A stretch of 64,000 nucleotides of DNA from Thermoanaerobaculia bacterium (GTDB lineage: Bacteria; Acidobacteriota; Thermoanaerobaculia; Multivoradales; JAHEKO01). Positions 8,201-20,789 of the stretch are shown here, one piece after another; position 1 is the first letter of the stretch; each line of letters begins with the position of its first letter. Location of the stretch: contig CAMYLC010000067.1 of assembly GCA_947259195.1 (NCBI GenBank), forward strand, positions 18,070 through 82,069. Reading direction: 5' to 3'. The notes below the pieces were generated by a model. That model saw only the letters and a program-made list of their open reading frames with translations, was not told the DNA's origin and did no database searches. Made by a program: the position numbers and the translations under genes.

Positions 8201-8842
8201 ATGCCTTCTCTCGTCCGTACTTCACCCGACAAGCGACCCTCCTGGCTGGAGGTTTCGGATCGGCACCTCATGAAAGCCCTCCAGCAGGATGAAGAGGGGG
8301 CTCTCGATGAGTTGATCGCTCGAAAATCACCCGGCCTAATGAGCGTGGCCGGCCGAATGCTGGGTGACGCGGAGGAGGCCAGGGACATCGTGCAGATCAC
8401 CTTTGTCAGGGTCTGGGAGCACCGACACGAGTTCCGGGATCGATGGAGCCCAAATACCTGGATCTACCGGATAGCCACCAACTTGACGATCGATCATCTG
8501 CGGGCCCGGCAACGACGAGAGCGAGCCTTGGGTCTGGCCGGTTTGTCACTGCGGGCAGTGGACAGCGAGAGGAGAAGCCTGGCTGAGCTCGAGCAGCGAG
8601 AGGTCGAGGAGATATTCCTCAAGCTCGTCGGCTGCCTCAGCAGTCGCCAACGAGTCGTATTCGTGTTGCGAGCGATTGAGGGCTTCGACACCAAGGAAGT
8701 TGCGGCCATGGTCGGCTGCAGAGCCTCGACTGTCCGCAATCACCTGTTCGTGGCCCGACGCAAGCTGAAGCGAGAGCTCGAGGCCTGTTTCCCCGAGTAC
8801 TCCCCGGGCTCGCCGATCGATTCGATGAGAGAGGACCCGTGA
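8201..8842 (+). CDS. ECF-type RNA polymerase sigma-70 family factor
   Basis: 213-aa ORF. Region 2 (DIVQITFVRVWEHRHEF...WIYRIATNLTIDHLR) and region 4 HTH (KEVAAMVGCRASTVRNHLFVARRKLK). A 4-nt overlap couples it to the downstream anti-sigma ORF. Confidence 0.85.
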   Translation: MPSLVRTSPDKRPSWLEVSDRHLMKALQQDEEGALDELIARKSPGLMSVAGRMLGDAEEARDIVQITFVRVWEHRHEFRDRWSPNTWIYRIATNLTIDHLRARQRRERALGLAGLSLRAVDSERRSLAELEQREVEEIFLKLVGCLSSRQRVVFVLRAIEGFDTKEVAAMVGCRASTVRNHLFVARRKLKRELEACFPEYSPGSPIDSMREDP

Positions 8843-9396
8843 AGAGTAGCTGCCAGCACCTGACCGACCGGGGGATCCTGGGGCTTTTTGCCGACAGCCT
8901 CGCCGACCTCGACCTCGATCTGCGACAAGAGGTTGTCGAGCACCTACGAGCTTGTTCGTCATGTCGGCGAGCCGCTGTCGAAGAGAATCCGACGGTCGTT
9001 TTCTCACTCCTCGAGACCGACTCGATCGGCGAAGCCGAGATCGCCGAGATTCAATCCGCTGTCAGGACTCTGCGCCGGTCGAGAGCCATCGAAACGGCTG
9101 AGAGAATCAGGCCCAAAGGTGGCAGGAAGACTGCCTCGGTGGCGGCGAGTCTGGTTTTCGCCCTTGCGCTGCTGCCGCTGGCTGGTGGGCGGCCGCTCGA
9201 GGATGGCGCGGAACCGCTGGTGGATGCGGTCTCCGAGCGCCAACCGGAAGCGCGGTCTGAATGGCAGTCGTGGGTCGATGACAGGTCGGTGCCGCCAGTC
9301 ATCGAAGAGTTGAACCGCCCCGAGGCAAGGGTGTATCAGCTCACCGAAGAGGACCTTGCCGTGGTAATGATCGTGGACGAGACCTTGGATCTCTAA
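8839..9396 (+). CDS. Putative anti-sigma factor (zf-HC2 type)
   Basis: 185-aa ORF translationally coupled to the ECF sigma gene. N-terminal H-x3-C-x2-C motif (HLRACSSCRRA) and one central TM (ASVAASLVFALALLPLA). Confidence 0.6.
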   Translation: MKSSCQHLTDRGILGLFADSLADLDLDLRQEVVEHLRACSSCRRAAVEENPTVVFSLLETDSIGEAEIAEIQSAVRTLRRSRAIETAERIRPKGGRKTASVAASLVFALALLPLAGGRPLEDGAEPLVDAVSERQPEARSEWQSWVDDRSVPPVIEELNRPEARVYQLTEEDLAVVMIVDETLDL

Positions 9397-9452: not shown

Positions 9453-10235
9453 GTGGTGGGTCCTCCAACCCCAAGCTCGCCGACGAACTTTCCAGTGACT
9501 TCGAAGTCTTCATGCAGGACTCTCGCCTTGGCGGTTTTCATGGCGACAATTCTGGTCTCGCCCGCGGTGGTGGCCAACGAATCGGGTCCGATAGTGACGG
9601 GTACCTTCACCCTGCAGCATCGGGCTGCATCGGAAGCCATCGATCTGATCCACCCCCTGCTCACAGCCCGAGGCGCCGTGGAGCTGCGCCCGGTAGACAA
9701 CACTCTGGTGATTCGAGACATATTCGAGACGGTCGACCGAGCCCTCGTGCTGCTCGCAGAGTTCGACCTTCCTGCGCCAACTCTCAGATTCGAGGTCCGC
9801 GTCGTTCGGGCGGGCCTGGACCGAACCGACAAGGCAAACCAGGTGGCCGAGGGCTTGCCGCCCCCACTCGTCGACCGGTTGCGGGAGTTGCTTCGCTACG
9901 AGAGTTTCGAGCTGCTTTCGGGAACCGACCTGGCGGCGCCCGAGAACCAGCAACTCGAAGCCTGGATCGGCGCCGATTTCCAGATCCGATTTCGAGTCGG
10001 CGTCGTGCAGGTCGACAGGCGGGTCAAACTGTATGGCTTCCAGGTGGCGCGTCGGGAACCGGACGGCGAGGTGGAAGTGTTGATTCACACTAATCTGAGC
10101 CTCTGGTTGGACAAACCGATGATCCTCGGCTTGGCGCGCACCGAATCGAGTGAACAAGCACTCATGGTCGTCATCCATTGCACCTATGAAAAGCCCCTGA
10201 ATAGGGCACGTGCGATGGCAGGCGACAGGGACTAG
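9453..10235 (+). CDS. Small secreted secretin-N (NolW-like) domain protein ('mini-secretin')
   Basis: 260-aa ORF with a GTG start and GGGAGG ~12 nt upstream. Signal-like segment LALAVFMATILVSPAVVA. The segment FTLQHRAASEAIDLIHPLLTARGAVELRPVDNTLVIRDIFETVDRALVLLAEFDLP matches the Secretin_N pattern. The C-terminal half is beta-rich. It lies directly upstream of gspF/gspE. Confidence 0.5.
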   Translation: MVGPPTPSSPTNFPVTSKSSCRTLALAVFMATILVSPAVVANESGPIVTGTFTLQHRAASEAIDLIHPLLTARGAVELRPVDNTLVIRDIFETVDRALVLLAEFDLPAPTLRFEVRVVRAGLDRTDKANQVAEGLPPPLVDRLRELLRYESFELLSGTDLAAPENQQLEAWIGADFQIRFRVGVVQVDRRVKLYGFQVARREPDGEVEVLIHTNLSLWLDKPMILGLARTESSEQALMVVIHCTYEKPLNRARAMAGDRD

Positions 10236-10253: not shown

Positions 10254-11468
10254 ATGCAGTTCCTTTGTAGAGTCGGCACATCGGACGGGCGCATCCTGGA
10301 GGACGTCTTCGAGGCGGCCGACGAGGCGACGCTGAGGCAGCAGCTTACCCAGCGTGGCTACCACCTGTTCGACCTACGCCGCCGTGGGGCTCTGGGCAAG
10401 CTGCGGCTGCCCGGCCGGAAGCGCACGGCAAGTCGGGTCAGCCCCAGGGCTTTGACCATCTTCAACCAGGAGCTGGCAGCCCTGCTGCGCTCGGGCCTGC
10501 CGATGATGCAAGCCCTGGATCTGGTGCTGGGGCGGCAGCGGGAACCGGTCTTCCAGGCCGCTTTACGTGACGTGCGGGACCGGGTGAAGGGCGGAGAGGA
10601 TCTATCCGCGGCCATCGGAGCCTTCGGCGACATGTTCCCTCCGCTCTACGCTGCAACGCTCCAAGCGGGCGAACGCAGCGGCGAGATGGAGCAGGTCATT
10701 CGCCGATTCATCCGGTATCAGCAACTGGTGACAGAGACTCGCAAGAGGATCGTCTCCGCCCTGGTCTATCCAGCTGCACTGGTTGGACTGTCGGTGGCCC
10801 TCATTGCAGTCATGATGATCTGGGTGATGCCCAGATTTACAGAGTTCTTTTCGAATCTACGGGTCGATCTGCCGCTGCTGACACGCCTGACCATGGGTCT
10901 CTCGCTCTTTGTCAAAGACAACTTCGGTTATCTGATCACCTTTCTGGTCGTGCTCGTCCTGGTCGGTGTCCGCATGAGCCGATCTCGATCCGGACGTGAT
11001 GCCATTTCGCGGCTGCAGCTGCGGATTCCGCTGCTCGGCCCTATCTTTCACCGTCTCGGACTGTCGGAGTTCTGTCGATCGTTGGCCACACTGCTGGCCG
11101 GCGGAATTCCAATCGTCGCGAGTCTCGAGGTGGCGGTTGGAGCGGTGAGCAATCCGTCCTTCAGACGGCGTCTGGAACCGGTGATCGACAATGTGCGTCA
11201 AGGCCAGTCCCTTTCCATCAGTCTGGATGAGGCCGGAGTCGGATCGGATATCGTCATCGACATGGTCGAGGTCGGGGAAGCCACTGGTTCGCTGGATTCC
11301 ATGCTGTCCGATGTGTCGGACTTCCTGGACGAGGAAGTGGAGACGAACCTGCAGCGCATACTGAGCCTGCTCGAGCCGGTGATGCTGGTGCTGATGGGGA
11401 TTATCGTGGCGACGCTGTTGATCTCGGTCTATCTGCCGCTGTTCAGTCTGCTCGGACAGGTGCAGTGA
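10254..11468 (+). CDS. gspF: Type II secretion / type IV pilus platform protein (GspF/PilC family)
   Basis: 404-aa ORF with a duplicated T2SF domain layout and three TM segments. Includes the conserved segment LATLLAGGIPIVASLE. Confidence 0.85.
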   Translation: MQFLCRVGTSDGRILEDVFEAADEATLRQQLTQRGYHLFDLRRRGALGKLRLPGRKRTASRVSPRALTIFNQELAALLRSGLPMMQALDLVLGRQREPVFQAALRDVRDRVKGGEDLSAAIGAFGDMFPPLYAATLQAGERSGEMEQVIRRFIRYQQLVTETRKRIVSALVYPAALVGLSVALIAVMMIWVMPRFTEFFSNLRVDLPLLTRLTMGLSLFVKDNFGYLITFLVVLVLVGVRMSRSRSGRDAISRLQLRIPLLGPIFHRLGLSEFCRSLATLLAGGIPIVASLEVAVGAVSNPSFRRRLEPVIDNVRQGQSLSISLDEAGVGSDIVIDMVEVGEATGSLDSMLSDVSDFLDEEVETNLQRILSLLEPVMLVLMGIIVATLLISVYLPLFSLLGQVQ

Positions 11469-11519: not shown

Positions 11520-13166
11520 GTGAGCGCAGAGCGATCGGAAGAGGGCGCATCATTGGTGGAGCCGGCCGAAGGTCTGGGGACGAACCATCGCCGGGAGGAG
11601 CGTGAGGCGGTTGAGCTGGCCCGGAAGTACGGGCTGGAGCTGGTGGACATGGACCATTTCCGTATCGATAACGATCTTCTCCGGTCCATACCTTTCGACA
11701 CCATGCTGCGGTACAACTTCGTCCCCGAGGCCCAGCGGGATGGCCGTTTGATCATCGTGATGGTCGACCCCGTGGACATCACCAAGCTGGACGAGCTGGA
11801 GCTGCTGCTGGGCAAACCCATCGAGGCCAAGTTGGGTCGGCGCTCGGCGATCGAGGAGATCCTGAAGCGGTCCGAGGGTGCCCAACGCGTTCTCGATGAG
11901 GCATCCGAGGACTTCCGGCTGCAGCTGGTCCAGGAAGATGCGGCCGGTGACGAGGTCCTGTCCCTGGACAGCATTACGGCAGACGGCAGTCCCATCATCA
12001 AGCTGGTCGACTCGACGATCTTCAATGCCATCCAGCGTCGGGCGAGTGACATCCATATCGAGACTCGCGAGACCGAGGTGATCATCAAGTACCGCATCGA
12101 CGGGGTGCTCTACCAGGCTATGGAGCCCATCGACCGGCGGCACCATCAGACGATCATCAGCCGCGTCAAGGTGATGGCTGAGTTGGATATCGCCGAGAAG
12201 CGGATTCCGCAGGATGGTCGCTTCAAGCTACGTTTCGAAGGTCGAAATATCGACTTCCGCGTCTCTATCATGCCTTCGGTCCACGGCGAGGACGCAGTGA
12301 TCCGTATCCTCGACAAGGAGTCCATGAGCAAGGAGTTCCGGAGCCTGCGCCTCGACGTTCTGGGATTCGATCATGCGACGATCCACAAGATTCGGAAGTT
12401 CATTCGCGAGCCTTACGGCATGGTGTTGGTGACCGGGCCTACGGGCTCGGGAAAGACCACTACGCTGTACGCCTGCCTGTCGGAGATCCAGTCCTCGGAG
12501 GACAAGATCGTCACCATCGAGGATCCGGTGGAGTACCAGCTGCGTGGCGTGACTCAAATCCCGGTCAACGAGAAGAAGGGGCTGACCTTCGCTCGAGGCC
12601 TGCGCTCCATTCTGCGCCACGATCCCGACAAGATCATGGTGGGTGAGATCCGCGACGAGGAGACGGCCCAGATCGCTGTGCAGTCGGCCCTCACAGGGCA
12701 TCTGGTCTTCACTACCGTGCATGCCAACAACGTCGTGGACGTGCTGGGACGCTTCCTCAACATGAACGTCGATCTCTACAATTTCGTCTCGGCCCTCAAC
12801 TGCGTCTTGGCCCAGCGGCTGGTGCGCAACATTTGTCGGCATTGCAAGCGCGAGGTGCAGCCGTCGGAGGAGCTGCTCATGGAAAGTGGCCTCGACCCGG
12901 CGATCGTCAGCGATCTGACTTTCTTCGAGGGTGCAGGGTGCATCGAGTGCAGTGGGGCCGGTTTTCTGGGACGGACTGCCATCTCCGAGCTGTTGGATCT
13001 GTCTGATCATATTCGTGAGTTGATCCTGGAGCGGCGACCCGCGTCGGAGATCAAGCGGGCAGCCAAGGAAGAGGGCATGATCTTCTTGAGAGAGTCTGCC
13101 CTGCAGCGAGTTTTCGAGGGAGTGACCACACTGCGTGAGATCAACAAAGTTACCTTTGTGGAGTAG
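11520..13166 (+). CDS. gspE: Type II secretion / type IV pilus assembly ATPase (GspE/PilB family)
   Basis: 548-aa ORF. N-terminal T2SE_N-like domain, Walker A VTGPTGSGKTTTLYA, Walker B/Asp box IMVGEIRDEETA, tetracysteine motif CRHCK...CIECSGAGF. Confidence 0.9.
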   Translation: MSAERSEEGASLVEPAEGLGTNHRREEREAVELARKYGLELVDMDHFRIDNDLLRSIPFDTMLRYNFVPEAQRDGRLIIVMVDPVDITKLDELELLLGKPIEAKLGRRSAIEEILKRSEGAQRVLDEASEDFRLQLVQEDAAGDEVLSLDSITADGSPIIKLVDSTIFNAIQRRASDIHIETRETEVIIKYRIDGVLYQAMEPIDRRHHQTIISRVKVMAELDIAEKRIPQDGRFKLRFEGRNIDFRVSIMPSVHGEDAVIRILDKESMSKEFRSLRLDVLGFDHATIHKIRKFIREPYGMVLVTGPTGSGKTTTLYACLSEIQSSEDKIVTIEDPVEYQLRGVTQIPVNEKKGLTFARGLRSILRHDPDKIMVGEIRDEETAQIAVQSALTGHLVFTTVHANNVVDVLGRFLNMNVDLYNFVSALNCVLAQRLVRNICRHCKREVQPSEELLMESGLDPAIVSDLTFFEGAGCIECSGAGFLGRTAISELLDLSDHIRELILERRPASEIKRAAKEEGMIFLRESALQRVFEGVTTLREINKVTFVE

Positions 13167-13194
13167 AAGCCTCCTGGGCCTCGAGCCGGTGGCG

Positions 13195-14118
13195 ATGCCA
13201 CCGCATGTCTTCGCGCTGGATGGTGCGCGGCTCCGCTATGGTCGCTTTGTCGAAGGCGAGCAGAGCTGGAGCATGTCCGCCTACCGGCAGGTAGGGCTGG
13301 GTGAGGAGGCCTTCGTGCCGGGCCCTCTTGGCAGCAGCCTTCGTGATCCGGAGTGGTTTCGAGAGCCGCTGGCAGAGCTGCTGGGGACTCTGGACTCGCC
13401 GGTCATCGAAGCCTCCCTGGTGCTTCCAGATTCCTGGCTGCGGCTGGCCGTGGTCGAGATCGAGAAGCTGCCGAGGGGCGCCAAGGCGAGAGAGGAGATC
13501 TTGAGGTGGAAGCTGCAGCAGATCATCCCCTTCAAGGTGGAGGACCTGCGACTTCGCGAGATGGAGCTGGCCCAGTTGCAGAACCGTCAGGGTGCCAAGC
13601 GCGTCCTGATCGGCTTCGGGCTCGACCAGCCCCTGAGCCAAATCGAGGAGTTGTTCGCCGAGCAGGGAATCCGAATCGGCAATCTCGTAAACCAGAGTCT
13701 GGCCACGCTGAGTGCCGTGGGTCACAATCTGCGAAACGTGGAGCTCGGAGCCGTGGCCCTGCTGACCGACGATGGTTACAGCTTGTCGTTCACCTACCGC
13801 GGTGAGCCCCTGGTGCATCGCCACCGGCCGCTGGCCGGTCAGTCGATCGCCGAGCTGCCCGAGGCAATGGTGACCCGGGACCTCAACTTGACCCGGGTAT
13901 TTCTCGAGGAGCTGCTGGGCGATGTCGCGCTGGAGCGTGTCCTGCTCGTCGGTCCGGAAGAGTCCCTGGCGCCCTGGTCGAGTTGGTTGGAAGAGAGCTT
14001 CGGTTTCCCAGCCCTGCCCTTGGAAGCCCAACACCTGTCCCTCGCGGGAGACCTGTCCGGGGCTTTGATGCACGAATTGGCGCCGGTGCTCGGAGCCGCG
14101 GTCCAGAGGATCCCATGA
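13195..14118 (+). CDS. PilM/GspL-like inner-membrane assembly protein
   Basis: The ORF track gives 13135-14118. The ATG at 13195 avoids a 32-nt overlap with gspE. It sits directly before PilN/O/P-like genes, and the segment LVLPDSWLRLAVVEIEKLPRGAKAREEILRWKLQQIIPF resembles the PilM N-terminus. Assignment is mostly by position. Confidence 0.5.
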   Translation: MPPHVFALDGARLRYGRFVEGEQSWSMSAYRQVGLGEEAFVPGPLGSSLRDPEWFREPLAELLGTLDSPVIEASLVLPDSWLRLAVVEIEKLPRGAKAREEILRWKLQQIIPFKVEDLRLREMELAQLQNRQGAKRVLIGFGLDQPLSQIEELFAEQGIRIGNLVNQSLATLSAVGHNLRNVELGAVALLTDDGYSLSFTYRGEPLVHRHRPLAGQSIAELPEAMVTRDLNLTRVFLEELLGDVALERVLLVGPEESLAPWSSWLEESFGFPALPLEAQHLSLAGDLSGALMHELAPVLGAAVQRIP

Positions 14119-14807
14119 GGCCCACCAAGATGAATCTGGCCTCGAGGCCCTTCGTGAACGAGCAGCCGGTGATCCGCACGTCGGCGTTATTGTGGATCCT
14201 CGGCCTGGCCCTACTGGCGCTCAACGTCTCCTTGTACTACAGGCACATCGAAGGCACGGGCGAACAGCAGGAGTTGCTGCGGCAGGCGGACGAGCGCTTG
14301 ATCCAGGAGACCGACGCGATCGAGCAGCTGCGTGGCGAGTTGGCGCAGCTGAATCTCGCGGGGCAGAATGAGCAGGTGTCGTTTCTCAACACCCAGATCG
14401 CTCTGCGGACTTTCTCCTGGAGCTCCCTGTTCGATCGGTTGGCCGAGGTCGTGCCGGCGGCGATTCAGATGAAGGGAATCTCACCCAGAAGCGTGGCGGC
14501 CGGTTCCGCCGACCGTCGTAGCCGCTCGTCCGGGGCTGCCGAAGAGATGGTGAAGGTGGATCTACAGGGAACGAGCCGCAGCCCCGAGGCTATTCTGCAA
14601 TTGGTAGATGCCCTGTTCGCGCATCCCAGCTTCTTCGATCCGGATCTGACGCGGGAGTCTTTCGCCGAAGGGCAGGAAGGCAGTTTCGTCCTCTCCGTGC
14701 TGTACCTGCCGACTGTTGAAAACGAAGCCGAGCGTTTTGAGGTCGATGAAGAGGCTGGTCAGGCTCCGGTCGTAGAGAGCCTGGAGTCGATGGAGGGAGG
14801 CGAATGA
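14115..14807 (+). CDS. PilN-like bitopic assembly protein
   Basis: Internal ATG at 14115 forms an ATGA overlap with the upstream stop. N-terminus MNLASRPFVNEQ followed by one TM and then a coiled coil, which is the PilN/GspL-C layout. Confidence 0.55.
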   Translation: MRPTKMNLASRPFVNEQPVIRTSALLWILGLALLALNVSLYYRHIEGTGEQQELLRQADERLIQETDAIEQLRGELAQLNLAGQNEQVSFLNTQIALRTFSWSSLFDRLAEVVPAAIQMKGISPRSVAAGSADRRSRSSGAAEEMVKVDLQGTSRSPEAILQLVDALFAHPSFFDPDLTRESFAEGQEGSFVLSVLYLPTVENEAERFEVDEEAGQAPVVESLESMEGGE

Positions 14808-15406
14808 CCTCGTCGCAGGGTGCCTGGCGGGCGCGACTCAAGTTCTGGCTGCCGGCCCTGATTCTGGTTGGGCTGAACCTGGCGGTGCTCTCCACCTACC
14901 GCTTCCTGCTTGCCGGACAGGCACAAATCCAGGCCGGGAGGGTCGAGCGACGGCAGGCTCGGGTAGAGGAGCTCGAGGCGGATCGACTTGCCCTCGAAGA
15001 GATCTTGACCGAGGCCAAACGCAACCGGGAGCTCGTCGACCGGCTCTATAAGGAGTGGCTTGGTCCGGAGAGCCAGAGACTGACCGCGGTGATCGCGGAG
15101 GTGAAGAGACTGGCTCAGATGGCCGGTGTCGAGTACTCGAGCTTCAGCTATCCCGAAGAGCTGCTGGAGGATCGGGGACTGCTGAAGCGCTCACTCGTCT
15201 TTTCTGTGGAGGGCAGCTACCCCGAGCTGCGGAGTTTCATCAACCTCATCGAGGTCTCCGATCTGTTCCTCATCCTCGAATCGGTTCGGCTGAGCGGTGG
15301 GCCGCGCGATGGACCGTACATTCGGGTCTCGATGACGGTCTCGACTCTCTTCGTGCCGGATGAACGGGACGAGCTTGGGGGAGACCAGCCGGGAGTGTCG
15401 AGCTGA
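14804..15406 (+). CDS. PilO/GspM-like bitopic assembly protein
   Basis: 200-aa ORF with a 4-nt overlap to the upstream gene. Layout is one N-terminal TM, a coiled coil and a C-terminal alpha/beta domain. The call rests on position and architecture. Confidence 0.5.
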   Translation: MTSSQGAWRARLKFWLPALILVGLNLAVLSTYRFLLAGQAQIQAGRVERRQARVEELEADRLALEEILTEAKRNRELVDRLYKEWLGPESQRLTAVIAEVKRLAQMAGVEYSSFSYPEELLEDRGLLKRSLVFSVEGSYPELRSFINLIEVSDLFLILESVRLSGGPRDGPYIRVSMTVSTLFVPDERDELGGDQPGVSS

Positions 15407-16011
15407 TGAGCAAAGACCAGCGGCAGAAGCTGCTGTTGGGGGTGCTCCTGGTGCTCATGCTCGCCGCCGTATGGCGGCAATTCGGGCCGCGCATCACGGT
15501 AGGATCCGGATCGAGCGAGTCTGGCAATCGCGGTCAGGCTGCCGAGCGTGGGACGGTCCGATCGGTAGTCGAGTCGCCGGGAGTGGTCGAGTTGCGACTC
15601 GAGGACCTCGACAAGGTGGCGGGTCGATTCAGACCTGGCCGAGACCCTTTTCGATTCGGAGAATCCGGAGTGGCGGAAGCAGAACCTACCGAGGATGAGG
15701 ACGATGAGGCGGCGCGGGCGGCCGCAGCGCAGGAGGCTTTGCGGCGGGCCATGGAGGCGCAAAGACGTCAGGAGGCTGCCGTGTCCGGCAGGCCCGTGCT
15801 GCCGGATTTCGATTTGAAGTTCCTGGGCAGTTTCGGATCTCGACAGAAGCGCCTGGCGGTCTTCAGCGATGGGGTCGAGATTTTCAACGCTCTGGAGGGT
15901 GGGGTCTTGAAGGGTGATTTCGTGATCAGGCAGATCGGTTTGGAGTCCGTAGACGTCGGCTACCTCGACTATCCGGACGAACCCGCGATCCGTCTGGCGG
16001 CGGGAGGGTAG
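15406..16011 (+). CDS. PilP/GspC-like protein
   Basis: 201-aa ORF with an N-terminal TM, an RDPF motif, an acidic/Ala-rich linker and a C-terminal beta domain (LKFLGSFGSRQKRLAVFSDGVEIFNALEGGVL). It lies immediately upstream of the secretin. Confidence 0.4.
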   Translation: MSKDQRQKLLLGVLLVLMLAAVWRQFGPRITVGSGSSESGNRGQAAERGTVRSVVESPGVVELRLEDLDKVAGRFRPGRDPFRFGESGVAEAEPTEDEDDEAARAAAAQEALRRAMEAQRRQEAAVSGRPVLPDFDLKFLGSFGSRQKRLAVFSDGVEIFNALEGGVLKGDFVIRQIGLESVDVGYLDYPDEPAIRLAAGG

Positions 16012-16012
16012 T

Positions 16013-18586
16013 ATGCTGAAGGTGGTGAAGATGCCAAGCAACCATACTCGAAGACTCGCGGCTTTGGGTCTCGCGCTCTTGGTGGCGGCGTGCTCCGGCT
16101 ATCGAGACGCGCGGGATGCTCAGATAGCCGAGCAGAAGGGCGACTGGGATACGGCGGTGTTGCTATATCTCGAACTGGCGGACCAGCACCCCGGCAATGT
16201 CTCCTATCGAACGGGACTTCTGCGTGCCAAGATCAAGGCCTCCCAGATGCACTTCGAGCGCGGCAAGGATCTCTATGACGCGGGAGTGCTGGATCGGGCC
16301 ATTGAAGAGTACCGCCAGGCGGTTCAGCTCGATCCGAGCAATCAGTATGCACAAGTCGAGTTGGAAAAGGCCATCTACGCTCAGGCTAGAGCGCAAGAAG
16401 ACGGATCGCAGCCGGAAACCCTGGCCGAGATGAAGGAGAATATGCGGGGCAGCCGCGCCCAGCCGCCGGTGTTGAACCCTCGCTCCAACGAGCCGATCTC
16501 ACTAAGCTTTCCGAAACCGGTCAGCGTGACCAGTATCTACCGCGCTCTCGGCAGGGCCTTTGGCATCGATGTCCTGTTCGATCCCAAGATGAGGGAGCAA
16601 GAGATCAGCATCGAGTTGGAGGACGCTACGGCGCAGGAGGCCTTGGAAATCCTCATGCGGGCCTCCGGCCACTTCTACAAAGTCCTCAACGAGCAGTCGA
16701 TCATCGTCATCGAGGACAGTCCACAGAATCGGCGGGCCTATGAGGATCTCGTCATCCAGACGTTCTTCCTCTCCAATGCCGAGGTCAAAGACGTCATGAC
16801 AATGCTGCGCAGCCTGGTAGGGGCGAAGAGTGTCGCCGCCAACGACCAGCTCAACGCCATCGCGCTGCGCGACACGGCCGACAAGGTAAAGGTGGCCGAG
16901 AGCATCATCCGCACCAACGACAAGTCACGCGGCGAAGTTGTGGTAGACGTCGAGCTGCTTCAGATCAACACCAGCAAGCTGCAGGAGCTCGGGGTCCTGT
17001 TGACCGACTACACGATCACGCAATTTCTGGACCCGACGTTGCAGGTCGGGGACTCCGGAGCCTTCCGGGTGTCGGACCTGGAATTCATCAATCAGGGCGA
17101 CTGGCTGGTGACCATCCCGGGTTTCGTCTACGACTTCGTCAAGACCAGCACCGAGGCGCAGCTGCTGGCCAGTCCGCAGGTGCGAATCAGCGATGGCGAA
17201 CAGGCCACAGTCCACATCGGCGAACAGGTGCCCATACCGGTAACGACCTTCAATACTTCGGGCACCATCGGCGGCAACATCGTGCCGATCACCTCGTTTC
17301 AGTACCAGGACATCGGCATTCGTCTCGACATTCAGCCGCGCCTGCACCACAACAAGGAGATCACTCTCGAGCTCAAAGTCGAGGTGAGCAACATCTCCGG
17401 GTTCGTGACCGGCGTTGGAGATCAGCAGCAGCCGATCATCGGCACGCGCCGCGTCGAGTCCACGATCCGCCTGATGGACGGCGAGACCAACTTCCTCGCC
17501 GGGCTGATCCGCACCGACGAGACCGTGACCGACACCGGAATACCCGGACTGATGGACCTGCCACTGATCGGGCGGCTCTTCACGCACAAGAAGACCGACG
17601 CCAAACGCACCGACCTGATCCTGACATTGACCCCACACATCATCCGGACGCCGAATGTGGACGAGGAAGACTTGGCGCCAATCTGGGTCGGGACCGAGGC
17701 CAACATCACTTTCCGAGGCGGCAGTCCCCGGGTCGAGTCGGAGGTGGAGGGGCCCTTCGACGAAGGCGAGGACGAGGATGCCGAGCGGATCCGCGAAATG
17801 ATCCGCCGCCGCATACAGAATCTGCCGCGTGGCTTGCAGGATTCGGCAGGAGAAGGCGAGGATGGGGCCGAGGAGCCTTCCGAATCGATCGACTTGACGC
17901 CGTCCGCGGCTCCGGGCGACATCTTCGACGGCCCGTTGGACCGCGAGACCGGGGAGGGACCTCTGGGTGACGATCCACTTGACGAGCCACCGAACAACGA
18001 CCTGGCCTCGAGGTCCTCGCTGACGTGGCCCACGCCGACGATGCTGTCTGTGGCTCTTCAGGTCGAAGGAGACGGACAGGTCGAGGACGCCGAGAAGGGG
18101 CCTCCCAAGGTGGAGCTCGAGCTCCAGCCAACCCGACCGCTGGTGGCGCCGGGCGCGACGTTCGAAGTGCAGCTCGTAGCGAGCGCCAAGGTACCGGTCT
18201 CGCATCTGCCGGTGACCCTGGTCTTCGATCCACGGGTTCTGGAAGTGATCCACGTCCAACGGGGAGGTTTTCTGGGTGCCGCGGGTCAGGCGAAGTTCAT
18301 GGCTGACTCTTCCAGCCCGGGGCGCATCGTGCTGGGAGCCAGTCGCGTTGGGCAGCAACCCGGGGTCACCGGCAATGGCCTCGTCGCCAGCCTGCGGTTC
18401 CGGGCCCTGGAGGCAGGTCAGACCAGTCTGAGCTTCGAGAAGGGCCGGGCCCTGGACAAGCGACTGAAGCCGATCACCCCCATTGGCAGGGCCCAGGCCG
18501 TGATTCGGGTCTCGGGAACCGCCAAAAGGAGAGATCCTGCCGAGAGGCCGACCAGGCCAGACGACTCCTCAACGCCCCCCGGCTAG
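16013..18586 (+). CDS. Secretin (GspD/PilQ family) with N-terminal lipobox + TPR region and C-terminal cohesin-like domain
   Basis: 857-aa ORF. Lipobox LLVAAC, then TPR-like helices (aa ~30-130) and NolW-like N-domains. Secretin core includes LLASPQVRISDGEQATVHIGEQVPIP and GIPGLMDLPLIGRLFTHKKTDAKRTDLILTLTPHII. An acidic linker follows, then a ~140-aa C-terminal beta domain with a cohesin-like pattern. Confidence 0.85.
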   Translation: MLKVVKMPSNHTRRLAALGLALLVAACSGYRDARDAQIAEQKGDWDTAVLLYLELADQHPGNVSYRTGLLRAKIKASQMHFERGKDLYDAGVLDRAIEEYRQAVQLDPSNQYAQVELEKAIYAQARAQEDGSQPETLAEMKENMRGSRAQPPVLNPRSNEPISLSFPKPVSVTSIYRALGRAFGIDVLFDPKMREQEISIELEDATAQEALEILMRASGHFYKVLNEQSIIVIEDSPQNRRAYEDLVIQTFFLSNAEVKDVMTMLRSLVGAKSVAANDQLNAIALRDTADKVKVAESIIRTNDKSRGEVVVDVELLQINTSKLQELGVLLTDYTITQFLDPTLQVGDSGAFRVSDLEFINQGDWLVTIPGFVYDFVKTSTEAQLLASPQVRISDGEQATVHIGEQVPIPVTTFNTSGTIGGNIVPITSFQYQDIGIRLDIQPRLHHNKEITLELKVEVSNISGFVTGVGDQQQPIIGTRRVESTIRLMDGETNFLAGLIRTDETVTDTGIPGLMDLPLIGRLFTHKKTDAKRTDLILTLTPHIIRTPNVDEEDLAPIWVGTEANITFRGGSPRVESEVEGPFDEGEDEDAERIREMIRRRIQNLPRGLQDSAGEGEDGAEEPSESIDLTPSAAPGDIFDGPLDRETGEGPLGDDPLDEPPNNDLASRSSLTWPTPTMLSVALQVEGDGQVEDAEKGPPKVELELQPTRPLVAPGATFEVQLVASAKVPVSHLPVTLVFDPRVLEVIHVQRGGFLGAAGQAKFMADSSSPGRIVLGASRVGQQPGVTGNGLVASLRFRALEAGQTSLSFEKGRALDKRLKPITPIGRAQAVIRVSGTAKRRDPAERPTRPDDSSTPPG

Positions 18587-18597
18587 TCGGTTGGTGG

Positions 18598-19095
18598 ATG
18601 GAGCACCAAGAGATGTCCAGCGTCAGATCGCGGTTCGGCGTGCACTTGAGTCTTGGCTACACCATGGTCGAGCTGGTAGTCGTCTGCTCGGTATTGGTCA
18701 TCCTCGCCGCGGTCGCCCTGCCCACCGCCAAGCACTCCATCAAGCGCGGCAAGGAAATAGAGTTGCGCCAGGCTCTGCGCCAGATGCGCAACGCGATTGA
18801 CGAGTTCAAACGATACAGCGACGCGGGACTGATTGCCGTGGAGCTCACCACCGACGGCTACCCGGCAGAGTTGGAGCTCCTGGTGGAGGGTGTCGCGGTC
18901 GTGGGTCAGATCGACAAGTCGGTCAGATTTCTACGTCGCATACCGGTGGATCCCATGACCGGGGAGGCCGAATGGGGCCTGAGGAGCTATCAGGACGACT
19001 TCGATTCAGGTTCCTGGGGGGGCGAGAACGTATTCGACGTCTATTCGCTGAGCGAGGGGGTGGGCCTCGACGGAGTGCCCTATCAGGAGTGGTGA
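18598..19095 (+). CDS. Prepilin-type N-terminal cleavage/methylation pseudopilin
   Basis: 165-aa ORF. Class III signal G|YTMVE with Glu at +5, followed by a hydrophobic helix. Ends in PYQEW. Confidence 0.75.
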   Translation: MEHQEMSSVRSRFGVHLSLGYTMVELVVVCSVLVILAAVALPTAKHSIKRGKEIELRQALRQMRNAIDEFKRYSDAGLIAVELTTDGYPAELELLVEGVAVVGQIDKSVRFLRRIPVDPMTGEAEWGLRSYQDDFDSGSWGGENVFDVYSLSEGVGLDGVPYQEW

Positions 19096-19097
19096 AG

Positions 19098-19529
19098 ATG
19101 ACCTGTCGAACAAGAGTCTGCAGAGGCACCGGGTTTACCCTCCTCGAGCTGATCATCGTGGTCGCCATAGTCGGTATTCTCGCCACCATGGCCATGCCGG
19201 CGCTCAAGAACGTACCTCGGAAAGCCGCCGAGGCGGTTCTCAGGTCGGACTTGAGAACTTTTCGGGACGCCATCGATCAGTTTCATGCCGACCAGGGCTA
19301 CTATCCACCAACGCTGGAAGCCCTGGTTGAAGAGGGCTACTTTCGCGCCATTCCCGTAGATCCGATCACCAAACGGTCCGACACCTGGGTGGAGATCTAT
19401 GATGAGCCCGATCCAGACTTCATACCGGCCGAGACCGACCTGCCAGAGGATGGACAGCCTGGAATCGTGGATGTGCGATCGGGCTCCACGATACTGAGCG
19501 TGTCAGGAACTCCATACTACGAGTGGTGA
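19098..19529 (+). CDS. gspG: GspG-like major pseudopilin
   Basis: Internal ATG at 19098 (the ORF track starts at 18972). Signal G|FTLLELIIVVAIVGILATMAMP, then LRTFRDAIDQFHADQGYYPPTLEALV, typical of GspG. Ends in PYYEW. Confidence 0.8.
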   Translation: MTCRTRVCRGTGFTLLELIIVVAIVGILATMAMPALKNVPRKAAEAVLRSDLRTFRDAIDQFHADQGYYPPTLEALVEEGYFRAIPVDPITKRSDTWVEIYDEPDPDFIPAETDLPEDGQPGIVDVRSGSTILSVSGTPYYEW

Positions 19530-20344
19530 GAACTCGGCTCTTGAATCAGCAGCGAGGCAGAGGGTTCTCTTCGCGGTCAGGGCTCGCCGACCAGGGGCGG
19601 CGGGGCTTCACCCTGGTGGCTTTGGTCGTGATCACGACCGTCATGACGATCTTGGTGGCCGCCGCGATGCCCATGTGGAGTCAGGTCGTGCAGCGTGATC
19701 GGGAGGCGGAACTGGTGTTTCGGGGGCTCCAGTACGCCGAGGCGATCCGAGTCTTCCAGCTGCGGTTCGGGCGCCAGCCCGTCAGTCTCGAAGAGCTATT
19801 GAGCGCCAAGCCGCGCTGCCTGCGCCAGCTCTGGAAGGACCCCATGACCGATAGCGGGGAATGGGGTCTCGTCGTGGTGCAGGTGGGAAGGCCTGCCGGC
19901 AGGGGGCGCCGCGGTCGAGAAACTCGAGAAGATCGGAGAAGACGACTCAGGGAAGCTCAGGATCAGGCCCGCAAGACCGGCGGTCTCACAACAGGTCAAG
20001 CCCCAGGTGATCTCGCGGGAGGCGGCGCGCCTTCGGGGCGAGCCAGCTCGCGGCGCGGCAGACAGGCCATGGGCCCCATCCAGGGTGTCAAGAGCCGCAG
20101 CACCGAGGAGGGTGTCCGGACGTTCTTCGGTAGCGACAGGTACAGTGAATGGAGGTTCACCGTCAATGTCCTTCCGACTCCCGCGGTGGTGCCGGGGAGT
20201 TTGAACCTCCTGAGGGCGAACGCTGATCAGGTAGGCCGCGCATTTCCACCGGACTTGCAACCCCAGCAGGGTTCGGCACCTGGCTTAGGACAAGCGCCAG
20301 GCGGTAGCCGTCGCCAGAACCAGCAGAGGAGACCCGGTGGATGA
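19523..20344 (+). CDS. Atypical pseudopilin-like protein (Ala at +5, Arg-rich disordered insert)
   Basis: 273-aa ORF. GTG start overlaps the upstream stop. Signal RRG|[22 protein letters not shown] lacks Glu+5. It has a GspG-like helix, a long Arg/Gly-rich low-complexity region and an internal RYSEWRF motif. Confidence 0.6.
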
Positions 20345-20789
20345 GGTGACTCTCCACGTTCGACGCCTGCCGCACGCCTCCGGTCTACCTCTACCGGAGC
20401 AGGCCTCTCCCGGCAGCGCGGGCCTCGATCTTCGAGCGGCTGTTTCTGATGACCTGCTGCTCGATCCAGGGGAGCGGACCCTGGTCCCGACAGGACTAGT
20501 CCTCGAGCTGCCGGAGGGTTGGGAGGGTCAGGTCAGGCCACGCAGTGGCCTCGCCATCCGACACGGCATCAGTCTCCTCAATTCCCCAGGCACCATCGAC
20601 AGCGACTACCGGGGTGAGGTGATGGTGGTGCTGGCCAACCTCGGAGGTAAGCCCTTCGCTATTCGTCGTGGCGACCGCATTGCCCAACTCGTGGTATCGC
20701 CTGTTACCAGGGTGGTGGTGCGAGAGGTGTCGGAGTTGAGCGCTACCGACCGCGGCTCCGGGGGCTTCGGCTCCACCGGGGTCGACTGA
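20337..20789 (+). CDS. dut: dUTP diphosphatase
   Basis: 150-aa ORF. Motifs [39 protein letters not shown] and a C-terminal [10 protein letters not shown]. Confidence 0.9.

Follow-up and report, generated by a model that had tools for sequence, protein, structure and literature searches.

A phylum-wide Acidobacteriota secretin with a predicted lipid anchor, tetratricopeptide repeats and a C-terminal cohesin, and its possible role in periplasmic docking

How folded cargo is recognized by type II secretion systems (T2SS) is a long-standing question, and we know of no general secretion signal or receptor for their substrates. In the secretins with solved structures the polypeptide chain exits the outer-membrane barrel towards the periplasm, which is also where S-domain and pilotin are located. 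Some secretins are themselves lipoproteins, and BfpB is an example. HxcQ, the 'liposecretin' of Pseudomonas aeruginosa, is another (Viarre et al. 2009, cited in PMC12475490). Here we describe an 857-residue secretin encoded in a 64,000-nucleotide stretch of a Thermoanaerobaculia genome (contig CAMYLC010000067.1 of assembly GCA_947259195.1, phylum Acidobacteriota; hereafter the window), in which a lipobox and a tetratricopeptide repeat (TPR) module precede the secretin core and a long acidic tether behind the core carries a cohesin. The original prediction, made from the letters of the window, had read these three features (lipobox, TPR helices and cohesin) into the protein, and all of them prove real: the first by pattern match and conservation, the second by Pfam, and the third by Pfam, AlphaFold2 (AF2) and Foldseek.

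The C-terminal domain is a genuine type-I-like cohesin. Residues 707-810 score 26.3 bits against Pfam Cohesin (PF00963; cut-off 24.1). A single-sequence phmmer search of the domain against the Protein Data Bank (PDB) returned no matches; a profile built from 10 orthologous domains aligned over its whole length with the cohesin of C. cellulolyticum CipC (1g1k/2vn5, E 1.9e-4), and its weaker PDB matches were nearly all cohesins as well. When modeled by AF2 from the ortholog alignment, the domain reached a predicted local distance difference test score (pLDDT) of 94.5 and a predicted TM-score (pTM) of 0.88, and in a Foldseek search of the PDB the top 50 matches were all cohesins (best TM-score 0.82, root-mean-square deviation 2.0-2.1 Å, E 5e-11), with the model and its matches featuring the nine-strand jelly roll of the cohesin fold. 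The cohesin-like domain first proposed for positions 18101-18520 is thus borne out, with boundaries at residues 697-835.

The protein that bears this cohesin is the outer-membrane secretin of a divergent T2SS/type IV pilus (T4P)-like machine typical of Acidobacteriota. Its open reading frame (ORF; P0001) occupies exactly the predicted positions 16013-18586, and its ATG follows one base after the stop codon of the upstream ORF. The Pfam Secretin match (PF00263) reaches 139.9 bits (cut-off 27.5) and the Secretin_N match (PF03958) upstream of it 35.1 bits (cut-off 28.2); the core aligns with the solved structures of GspD (5wln, 5wq8, 6hcg), RcpA (8odn) and PilQ (6ve2), and the best of these matches, to GspD, span both Secretin_N and the core. 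Among NCBIfam models GspD ranks first (TIGR02517, 162.6 bits) and PilQ second (TIGR02515, 104.7 bits), both well under their equivalog cut-offs of 351.35 and 284.35, which rules out membership of either family. The full-length AF2 model has a pLDDT of 51.5, as expected for a monomeric secretin, and carries no information on domain contacts; its usable parts are the TPR module (pLDDT ~80) and the cohesin (~85) only.

The N-terminus, MLKVVKMPSNHTRRLAALGLALLVAAC followed by SGY, matches the PROSITE-type lipobox pattern with Cys27 as the lipobox cysteine. This residue is kept in every full-length ortholog examined, and the lipobox in most phylum-wide homologs, and lipidation of Cys27 is predicted on the strength of pattern and conservation together. 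The TPR module behind it is a short generic stretch of ~100 residues: several Pfam TPR models match within residues 36-117 (TPR_11, 28.0 bits, cut-off 26.8; TPR_14, 25.6 bits, cut-off 23.5), phmmer matches the region to consensus TPR proteins in the PDB, and the full-length AF2 model places helices in hairpins across residues 11-129 at the confidence given above. Weak NCBIfam matches of the N-terminal region comprise TraC (E 5.6e-6), AlgK, GltE, Tgl and PilW; membership of the PilF/PilW/Tgl pilotins is ruled out, with PilW (TIGR02521) at 10.9 bits against a required 154 and Tgl (NF033762) at 11.4 against 225. The description of the N-terminus as pilotin-like is therefore a fair reading as regards its own predicted lipid anchor and its TPR helices, and does not hold as an assignment to the pilotin family. 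By analogy with HxcQ, a secretin that anchors itself without a separate pilotin is plausible. Between the TPR module and Secretin_N, residues ~160-235 form an N0/STN-like region modeled at a pLDDT of 60-69, and the equivalent region in homologs from the phylum matches Pfam STN or FecR_C.

Behind the core the relationship to known secretins breaks off. Alignments to GspD, RcpA and PilQ in the PDB stop at residue ~546, at the last strand of the barrel, and are followed here by a near-invariant 57-residue segment (PIWVGTExNIxFRGGSPRVES..EGPF, then one basic helix), whose sequence does not resemble the S-domain of solved GspD, of which it may be a lineage-specific counterpart. Next comes the long acidic linker of the original prediction, which we confirm as a 94-residue tether (residues 603-696) with 23 D/E against 4 K/R, 11 P and 12 G, variable among orthologs and disordered in the full-length AF2 model (pLDDT below 50). 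Because homology to solved secretins ends with the barrel, and in those structures the chain emerges from it into the periplasm, the cohesin is most likely periplasmic rather than surface-displayed; of the two exposures considered at the outset, periplasm or surface, the first is favored and the second unlikely. Display at the mouth of the pore, where the cohesin would anchor secreted dockerin enzymes in a minimal cellulosome-style scaffold, would suit the length of the tether (~94 residues) and the signal peptide of the genome's sole dockerin protein, a GDSL-type esterase described below; classical cohesins act outside the cell, and the GDSL enzyme class includes known T2SS substrates. We nevertheless regard such display as highly improbable, as solved secretins keep their C-terminus and S-domain in the periplasm, the acidic linker shows no transmembrane or translocation element, and a separate lipoprotein cohesin could serve as the surface anchor instead.

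A survey of how widely the fusion occurs, as the original prediction had proposed, found it common across the phylum and not peculiar to this gene. The close homologs, from a search restricted to the C-terminal region of the secretin, belong to metagenome-assembled genomes of Thermoanaerobaculia/Acidobacteriota, one of them being named 'cohesin domain-containing protein' at NCBI. With the C-terminal domain as query, 2140 representative proteins match at E up to 0.001. Among the best 150 of these at least 26 are secretin-cohesin fusions, many of the fusions being fragments, and the rest are mostly short single-domain pieces or multi-cohesin proteins. In a sample of 301 Acidobacteriota genomes the cohesin profile matches 158, in 106 of 185 genera, mostly within frames of 700-1100 residues; at 8 of 13 loci tested outside the class the frame also contains a secretin core upstream of the cohesin, and all nine complete genes retrieved, which represent nine other families, combine TPR, Secretin_N, Secretin and Cohesin, with cohesin scores of 32-53 bits. 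In most of the retrieved homologs the lipobox leads into a TPR region that starts with 'WD..A', and two have an ordinary signal peptide instead. Because of this breadth (158/301 genomes) and of the shared architecture (9/9 genes), the TPR-secretin-cohesin layout is the ancestral, standard secretin of a phylum-wide Acidobacteriota machine. We found no publication describing such a secretin-cohesin fusion, which databases label automatically.

Two further observations concern relatives of the protein. The best-scoring relatives of the C-terminal domain in a library of 1.8 billion proteins (P0013-P0019, P0025, P0042 and others) are scaffoldin-like proteins of 538-2276 residues with 4-8 tandem cohesin repeats. 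In the complete genome of one relative (G025:C1:2782858-2785178) the secretin ortholog is split, its N-terminal 160 residues lying in a separate frame with an in-frame TGA, and may be a pseudogene or reflect a sequencing error.

The original prediction had suggested that the cohesin might dock dockerin-like cargo, and a search of its own genome (4.28 Mb assembly, 88% complete) returned one Pfam-level cohesin, that of the secretin, and one Dockerin_1 match. The latter belongs to P0163, a 396-residue protein (G000 contig C111:44024-45211 (-), equivalent to L080:8022-9212 (-)) made up of a Sec-type signal, a GDSL/SGNH hydrolase domain (Lipase_GDSL_2) resembling TesA-like esterases, an Ig-like spacer of ~100 residues and a two-repeat Dockerin_1 domain that matches the solved dockerin 2y3n_B (E 7.6e-9). 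The start of the esterase gene is overlapped by 19 nucleotides by a gene for a 354-residue exported protein with a weak BNR/sialidase-like match (L080:9194-10258 (-)); the pair of genes, in this order, is conserved in families f1, f5, f7 and f10 and was not seen in genus g7. That the secretin cohesin is the only one in the genome is true at the Pfam threshold and wrong at profile sensitivity, where a small second cohesin emerges (G000 contig C29:8187-8507 (-), equivalent to L081:3131-3661 (-)). Its open frame of 176 codons has no start codon or lipobox upstream of a Gly-rich linker, the protein being a lipoprotein in relatives, and the gene may be frameshifted or mis-assembled.

We then compared 49 genomes of the window's order, in counts that are not corrected for phylogeny. 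All 29 order genomes tested for it hold an ortholog of the TPR-secretin, and 43 of the 49 have the secretin cohesin. The six secretins that lack it (G117, G137, G165, G141, G181 and G125) are encoded by shorter frames with no cohesin remnant in any frame at E up to 10, which rules out frameshifts or assembly artefacts as the cause. Whether or not the secretin has its cohesin, the operon remains complete and collinear, and we found no operon-encoded partner lost along with the cohesin. Because cohesin-less secretins sit in complete syntenic operons without remnants of the domain, the cohesin is an accessory module whose partner is encoded outside the operon. A full-length ortholog of the SGNH-dockerin esterase, usually the only dockerin protein of its genome, is present in 42 of the 49, and its distribution tends to follow that of the secretin cohesin (both in 41 genomes, cohesin only in 2, esterase only in 1, neither in 5; Fisher p 6e-5), including a same-genus contrast between G045, which has both, and G141, which has neither. 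Searched with the cohesin profile, each genome of the order that has the esterase yields exactly one further cohesin, in a protein of ~150-200 residues consisting of a lipobox, a Gly/Pro-rich linker and the single cohesin.

From these patterns we propose, at a probability of roughly 0.45, that the cohesins form a periplasmic docking crown on the secretin and that, in this order, the crown shares one dockerin-tagged esterase with the lipoprotein cohesin. The predicted lipid anchor, probably with the help of the TPR module, would spare the secretin the need for a separate pilotin in reaching the outer membrane, as for the liposecretin HxcQ. With the chain leaving the barrel towards the periplasm, as in solved secretins, the 12-15 tethered cohesins of each pore would make up a crown of docking modules suspended below the outer membrane. 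The three-part set of this order would comprise the secretin cohesin, one lipoprotein cohesin and one Sec-exported SGNH/GDSL dockerin esterase, with the esterase dockerin plugging into the secretin-borne cohesins such that the enzyme would be captured or parked at the pore, and with the lipoprotein cohesin acting as its obligate, final anchor. In lineages free of dockerins the ancestral ligand of the secretin cohesin would be something other than a dockerin.

A number of observations weigh against a docking crown that engages the esterase. The lipoprotein cohesin occurs in 42 of 42 esterase genomes and is absent from six of the other seven, with a weak match in G181 (p 5e-7). One genome (G125) has a stop codon within the tether and keeps both the esterase and the lipoprotein cohesin without a secretin cohesin, which rules out that the esterase is restricted to genomes with the secretin cohesin; two others (G149 and G197) have the secretin cohesin and neither the esterase nor the lipoprotein cohesin. 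About four independent losses of the secretin cohesin are estimated, and in three of these the esterase is absent too, in counts that ignore phylogeny. Secretin and esterase genes are unlinked, lying ~350-530 kb apart in complete genomes, and in family f17 of the same class the C-terminal domain is divergent and an SGNH-dockerin protein is missing. Cohesins usually bind dockerins very tightly, as would suit a stable anchor better than the transient capture of cargo. Across the phylum 43 of the 49 genomes with at least two cohesin hits contain Dockerin_1, against 18 of 109 with one and 52 of 143 with none, the single-hit cohesins being mostly the secretin's where frames were listed, and small cohesins adjoin dockerin genes in other lineages (for example on contig C38 of G389 and contig C104 of G469). 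Owing to the near-perfect co-occurrence and to the uncoupling of the secretin cohesin in G125, G149 and G197, the lipoprotein cohesin is most likely the obligate partner of the esterase, to which pair the secretin cohesin is tied loosely. The docking idea therefore stands insofar as the genome has one dockerin protein that tracks the secretin cohesin at the level of the order, and is weakened in that the lipoprotein cohesin tracks that protein better, the esterase and the secretin cohesin are uncoupled in G125, and 91 of the 109 single-cohesin genomes are free of dockerins.

The same data bear on an alternative in which the secretin cohesin is dockerin-independent, either binding a phylum-conserved non-dockerin ligand (a cargo signal, an envelope protein, peptidoglycan or a part of the secretin) or playing an S-domain-like structural or assembly role, with the esterase bound by the lipoprotein cohesin only. 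A general coupling of cohesins and dockerins across the phylum is ruled out (both in 61 genomes, cohesin only in 97, dockerin only in 52, neither in 91; odds ratio 1.1, p 0.72); phylum-wide, dockerins follow the extra cohesins and not the secretin's, and the adjacent genes point to the small cohesins as their usual partners. Since only 18 of the 109 single-hit genomes have Dockerin_1, the secretin cohesin does not as a rule depend on dockerins, and its Pfam scores in dockerin-free lineages (45.6, 52.8 and 44.7 bits in G365, G228 and G383) are as high as in dockerin-bearing ones. The secretin cohesin is thus conserved without a recognizable dockerin in most lineages, and dockerin docking by it is at best a lineage-specific use. 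Together with the pairing of lipoprotein cohesin and esterase, the genomes in which the secretin cohesin goes its own way and the small cohesins beside dockerin genes, these results make a wholly dockerin-independent cohesin a tentative, though serious, possibility. Against it, five of the six cohesin-less secretins are found in genomes without the esterase, four of which also lack the lipoprotein cohesin, in at least three lineages and with the one same-genus contrast; no operon gene is lost along with the cohesin, leaving no alternative partner in sight; and the match of the domain to bona fide dockerin-binding cohesins extends over its full length.

Two other accounts were considered. In one the tethered ring would act as a periplasmic cargo receptor that captures the dockerin esterase after Sec export, feeds it to the pore and hands it to the lipoprotein cohesin, which we consider unlikely. 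In the other the cohesin would be a functionless evolutionary leftover on the secretin tail. Several clean losses without change to the operon are what such a remnant would leave, but over half of the phylum genomes sampled retain the domain, with scores of 32-53 bits against the Pfam cohesin model and many invariant residues, and we give this account almost no credence.

The secretin gene sits in a plus-strand cluster (Table 1) that runs from an extracytoplasmic function (ECF) sigma/anti-sigma pair through a Secretin_N-like protein, GspF, GspE/PilB, four platform ORFs and the secretin to three pseudopilins and dut, with the T2SSE, T2SSF and N_methyl ORFs sharing the secretin's operon. The position of the ECF sigma/anti-sigma pair at the head of the cluster is kept across the order and suggests control of the secretion operon by envelope signals. 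The 260-residue Secretin_N-like protein, whose place ahead of gspF is kept in four other genomes, could be a GspC/PilP-like connector to the N-domains of the secretin. The MshEN domain binds cyclic di-GMP in other systems, and through it the machine may be under cyclic di-GMP control. Of the platform ORFs, that of 327 codons has no family match and is PilM-like by position only, that of 274 gives a sub-threshold PilN match, that of 200 a weak GspM match and that of 201 no family match. Two pseudopilins match the N_methyl prepilin motif, one above and one just under the Pfam cut-off, and two are weakly GspG-like. Directly after the third pseudopilin comes dut, encoding dUTPase (20337-20789, (+)), which occupies the same place in all four other genomes examined and is an unusual gene to find so stably beside a secretion operon.

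Table 1. Features of the secretin gene and its cluster, in window coordinates
Feature	Position	Strand	Evidence or remark
ECF sigma factor	8201-8842	+	Cluster head
zf-HC2 anti-sigma factor	8839-9396	+	Cluster head
260-residue protein with one Secretin_N-like domain	9453-10235	+	Pfam 20.8 bits, under cut-off; weak GspD/PilQ N-domain matches
GspF/PilC-type platform protein	10254-11468	+	
GspE/PilB-type ATPase with MshEN N-domain (65 bits)	11520-13166	+	
Four assembly-platform ORFs	13135-16011	+	All four conserved in synteny
Secretin gene	16013-18586	+	ORF, Pfam, NCBIfam
Signal peptide with lipobox LLVAAC	16013-16093	+	Pattern match and ortholog conservation
Predicted lipidated Cys27	16091-16093	+	Mature residue 1; residue +2 is Ser
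TPR module, residues ~30-130, five helices, 2-3 repeats	16100-16402	+	Pfam TPR_11, TPR_14, TPR_2; AF2; phmmer
N0/STN-like alpha/beta domain, residues ~160-235	16490-16717	+	AF2 secondary structure; weak evidence
Secretin_N (N1/N3-type), residues 249-306	16757-16930	+	Pfam PF03958, 35.1 bits
Secretin core (outer-membrane barrel and gate), residues 376-545	17138-17647	+	Pfam PF00263; PDB alignments
Conserved post-core segment, residues 546-602	17648-17818	+	Invariant alignment columns
Acidic Pro/Gly-rich disordered tether, residues 603-696	17819-18100	+	Composition; pLDDT below 50
Cohesin module, residues 697-835	18101-18517	+	Pfam, ortholog profile, AF2, Foldseek
Basic Pro-rich C-terminal tail	18518-18583	+	Conservation restricted to close relatives
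Three pseudopilin genes	18598-20344	+	N_methyl and weak GspG-like matches

The protein adds to the known secretins a type with a fused TPR module and predicted lipid anchor, in which the pore itself bears a module whose only well-understood role elsewhere is tight and specific protein docking. It takes cohesin biology beyond the surfaces of Gram-positive bacteria and archaea and into the envelope of a soil phylum that is abundant and little studied, and the order offers a clean three-protein system of the secretin cohesin, one dockerin-tagged exported enzyme and one lipoprotein cohesin. Should the ligand of the secretin cohesin prove not to be a dockerin, as hinted by the data from across the phylum, it would define a new class of ligand for the cohesin fold; if the ring were a cargo receptor, the pair would be the first 'address tag plus receptor' for substrate selection by a T2SS and the first cohesin-dockerin system inside a Gram-negative envelope.

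Compared with known systems, the secretin is closest to GspD/XcpQ/PulD of the T2SS (PF00263; 5wln, 5wq8, 6hcg), with which it shares the match over Secretin_N and core and an operon with GspE, GspF and GspG-like pseudopilins, and from which it differs in having fewer N-domains, no recognizable S-domain, an added lipobox and TPR module at one end and a tether and cohesin at the other. With HxcQ, which is believed to need no separate pilotin for outer-membrane targeting, it shares an N-terminal lipid-anchor signal of its own; unlike this secretin, HxcQ to our knowledge has neither a TPR module nor a C-terminal cohesin. A lipobox followed by TPR helices is also found in PilF/PilW/Tgl of T4P and in AlgK, GltE and TraC of other envelope machines, whereas here the module is confined to ~100 residues with 2-3 repeats and forms part of the secretin itself instead of having a gene of its own. 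Finally, the C-terminal domain has the same whole-domain fold as the type I scaffoldin cohesins (CipC 1g1k/2vn5, CipA 1aoh/1ohz and C. acetobutylicum CohA2 6kgf) and the non-cellulosomal archaeal cohesin 2xdh, at TM-scores of 0.72-0.82. In contrast to the scaffoldin cohesins, it is carried, in host genomes most of which are dockerin-free, by a Gram-negative outer-membrane secretin, in one copy per chain and probably within the periplasm.

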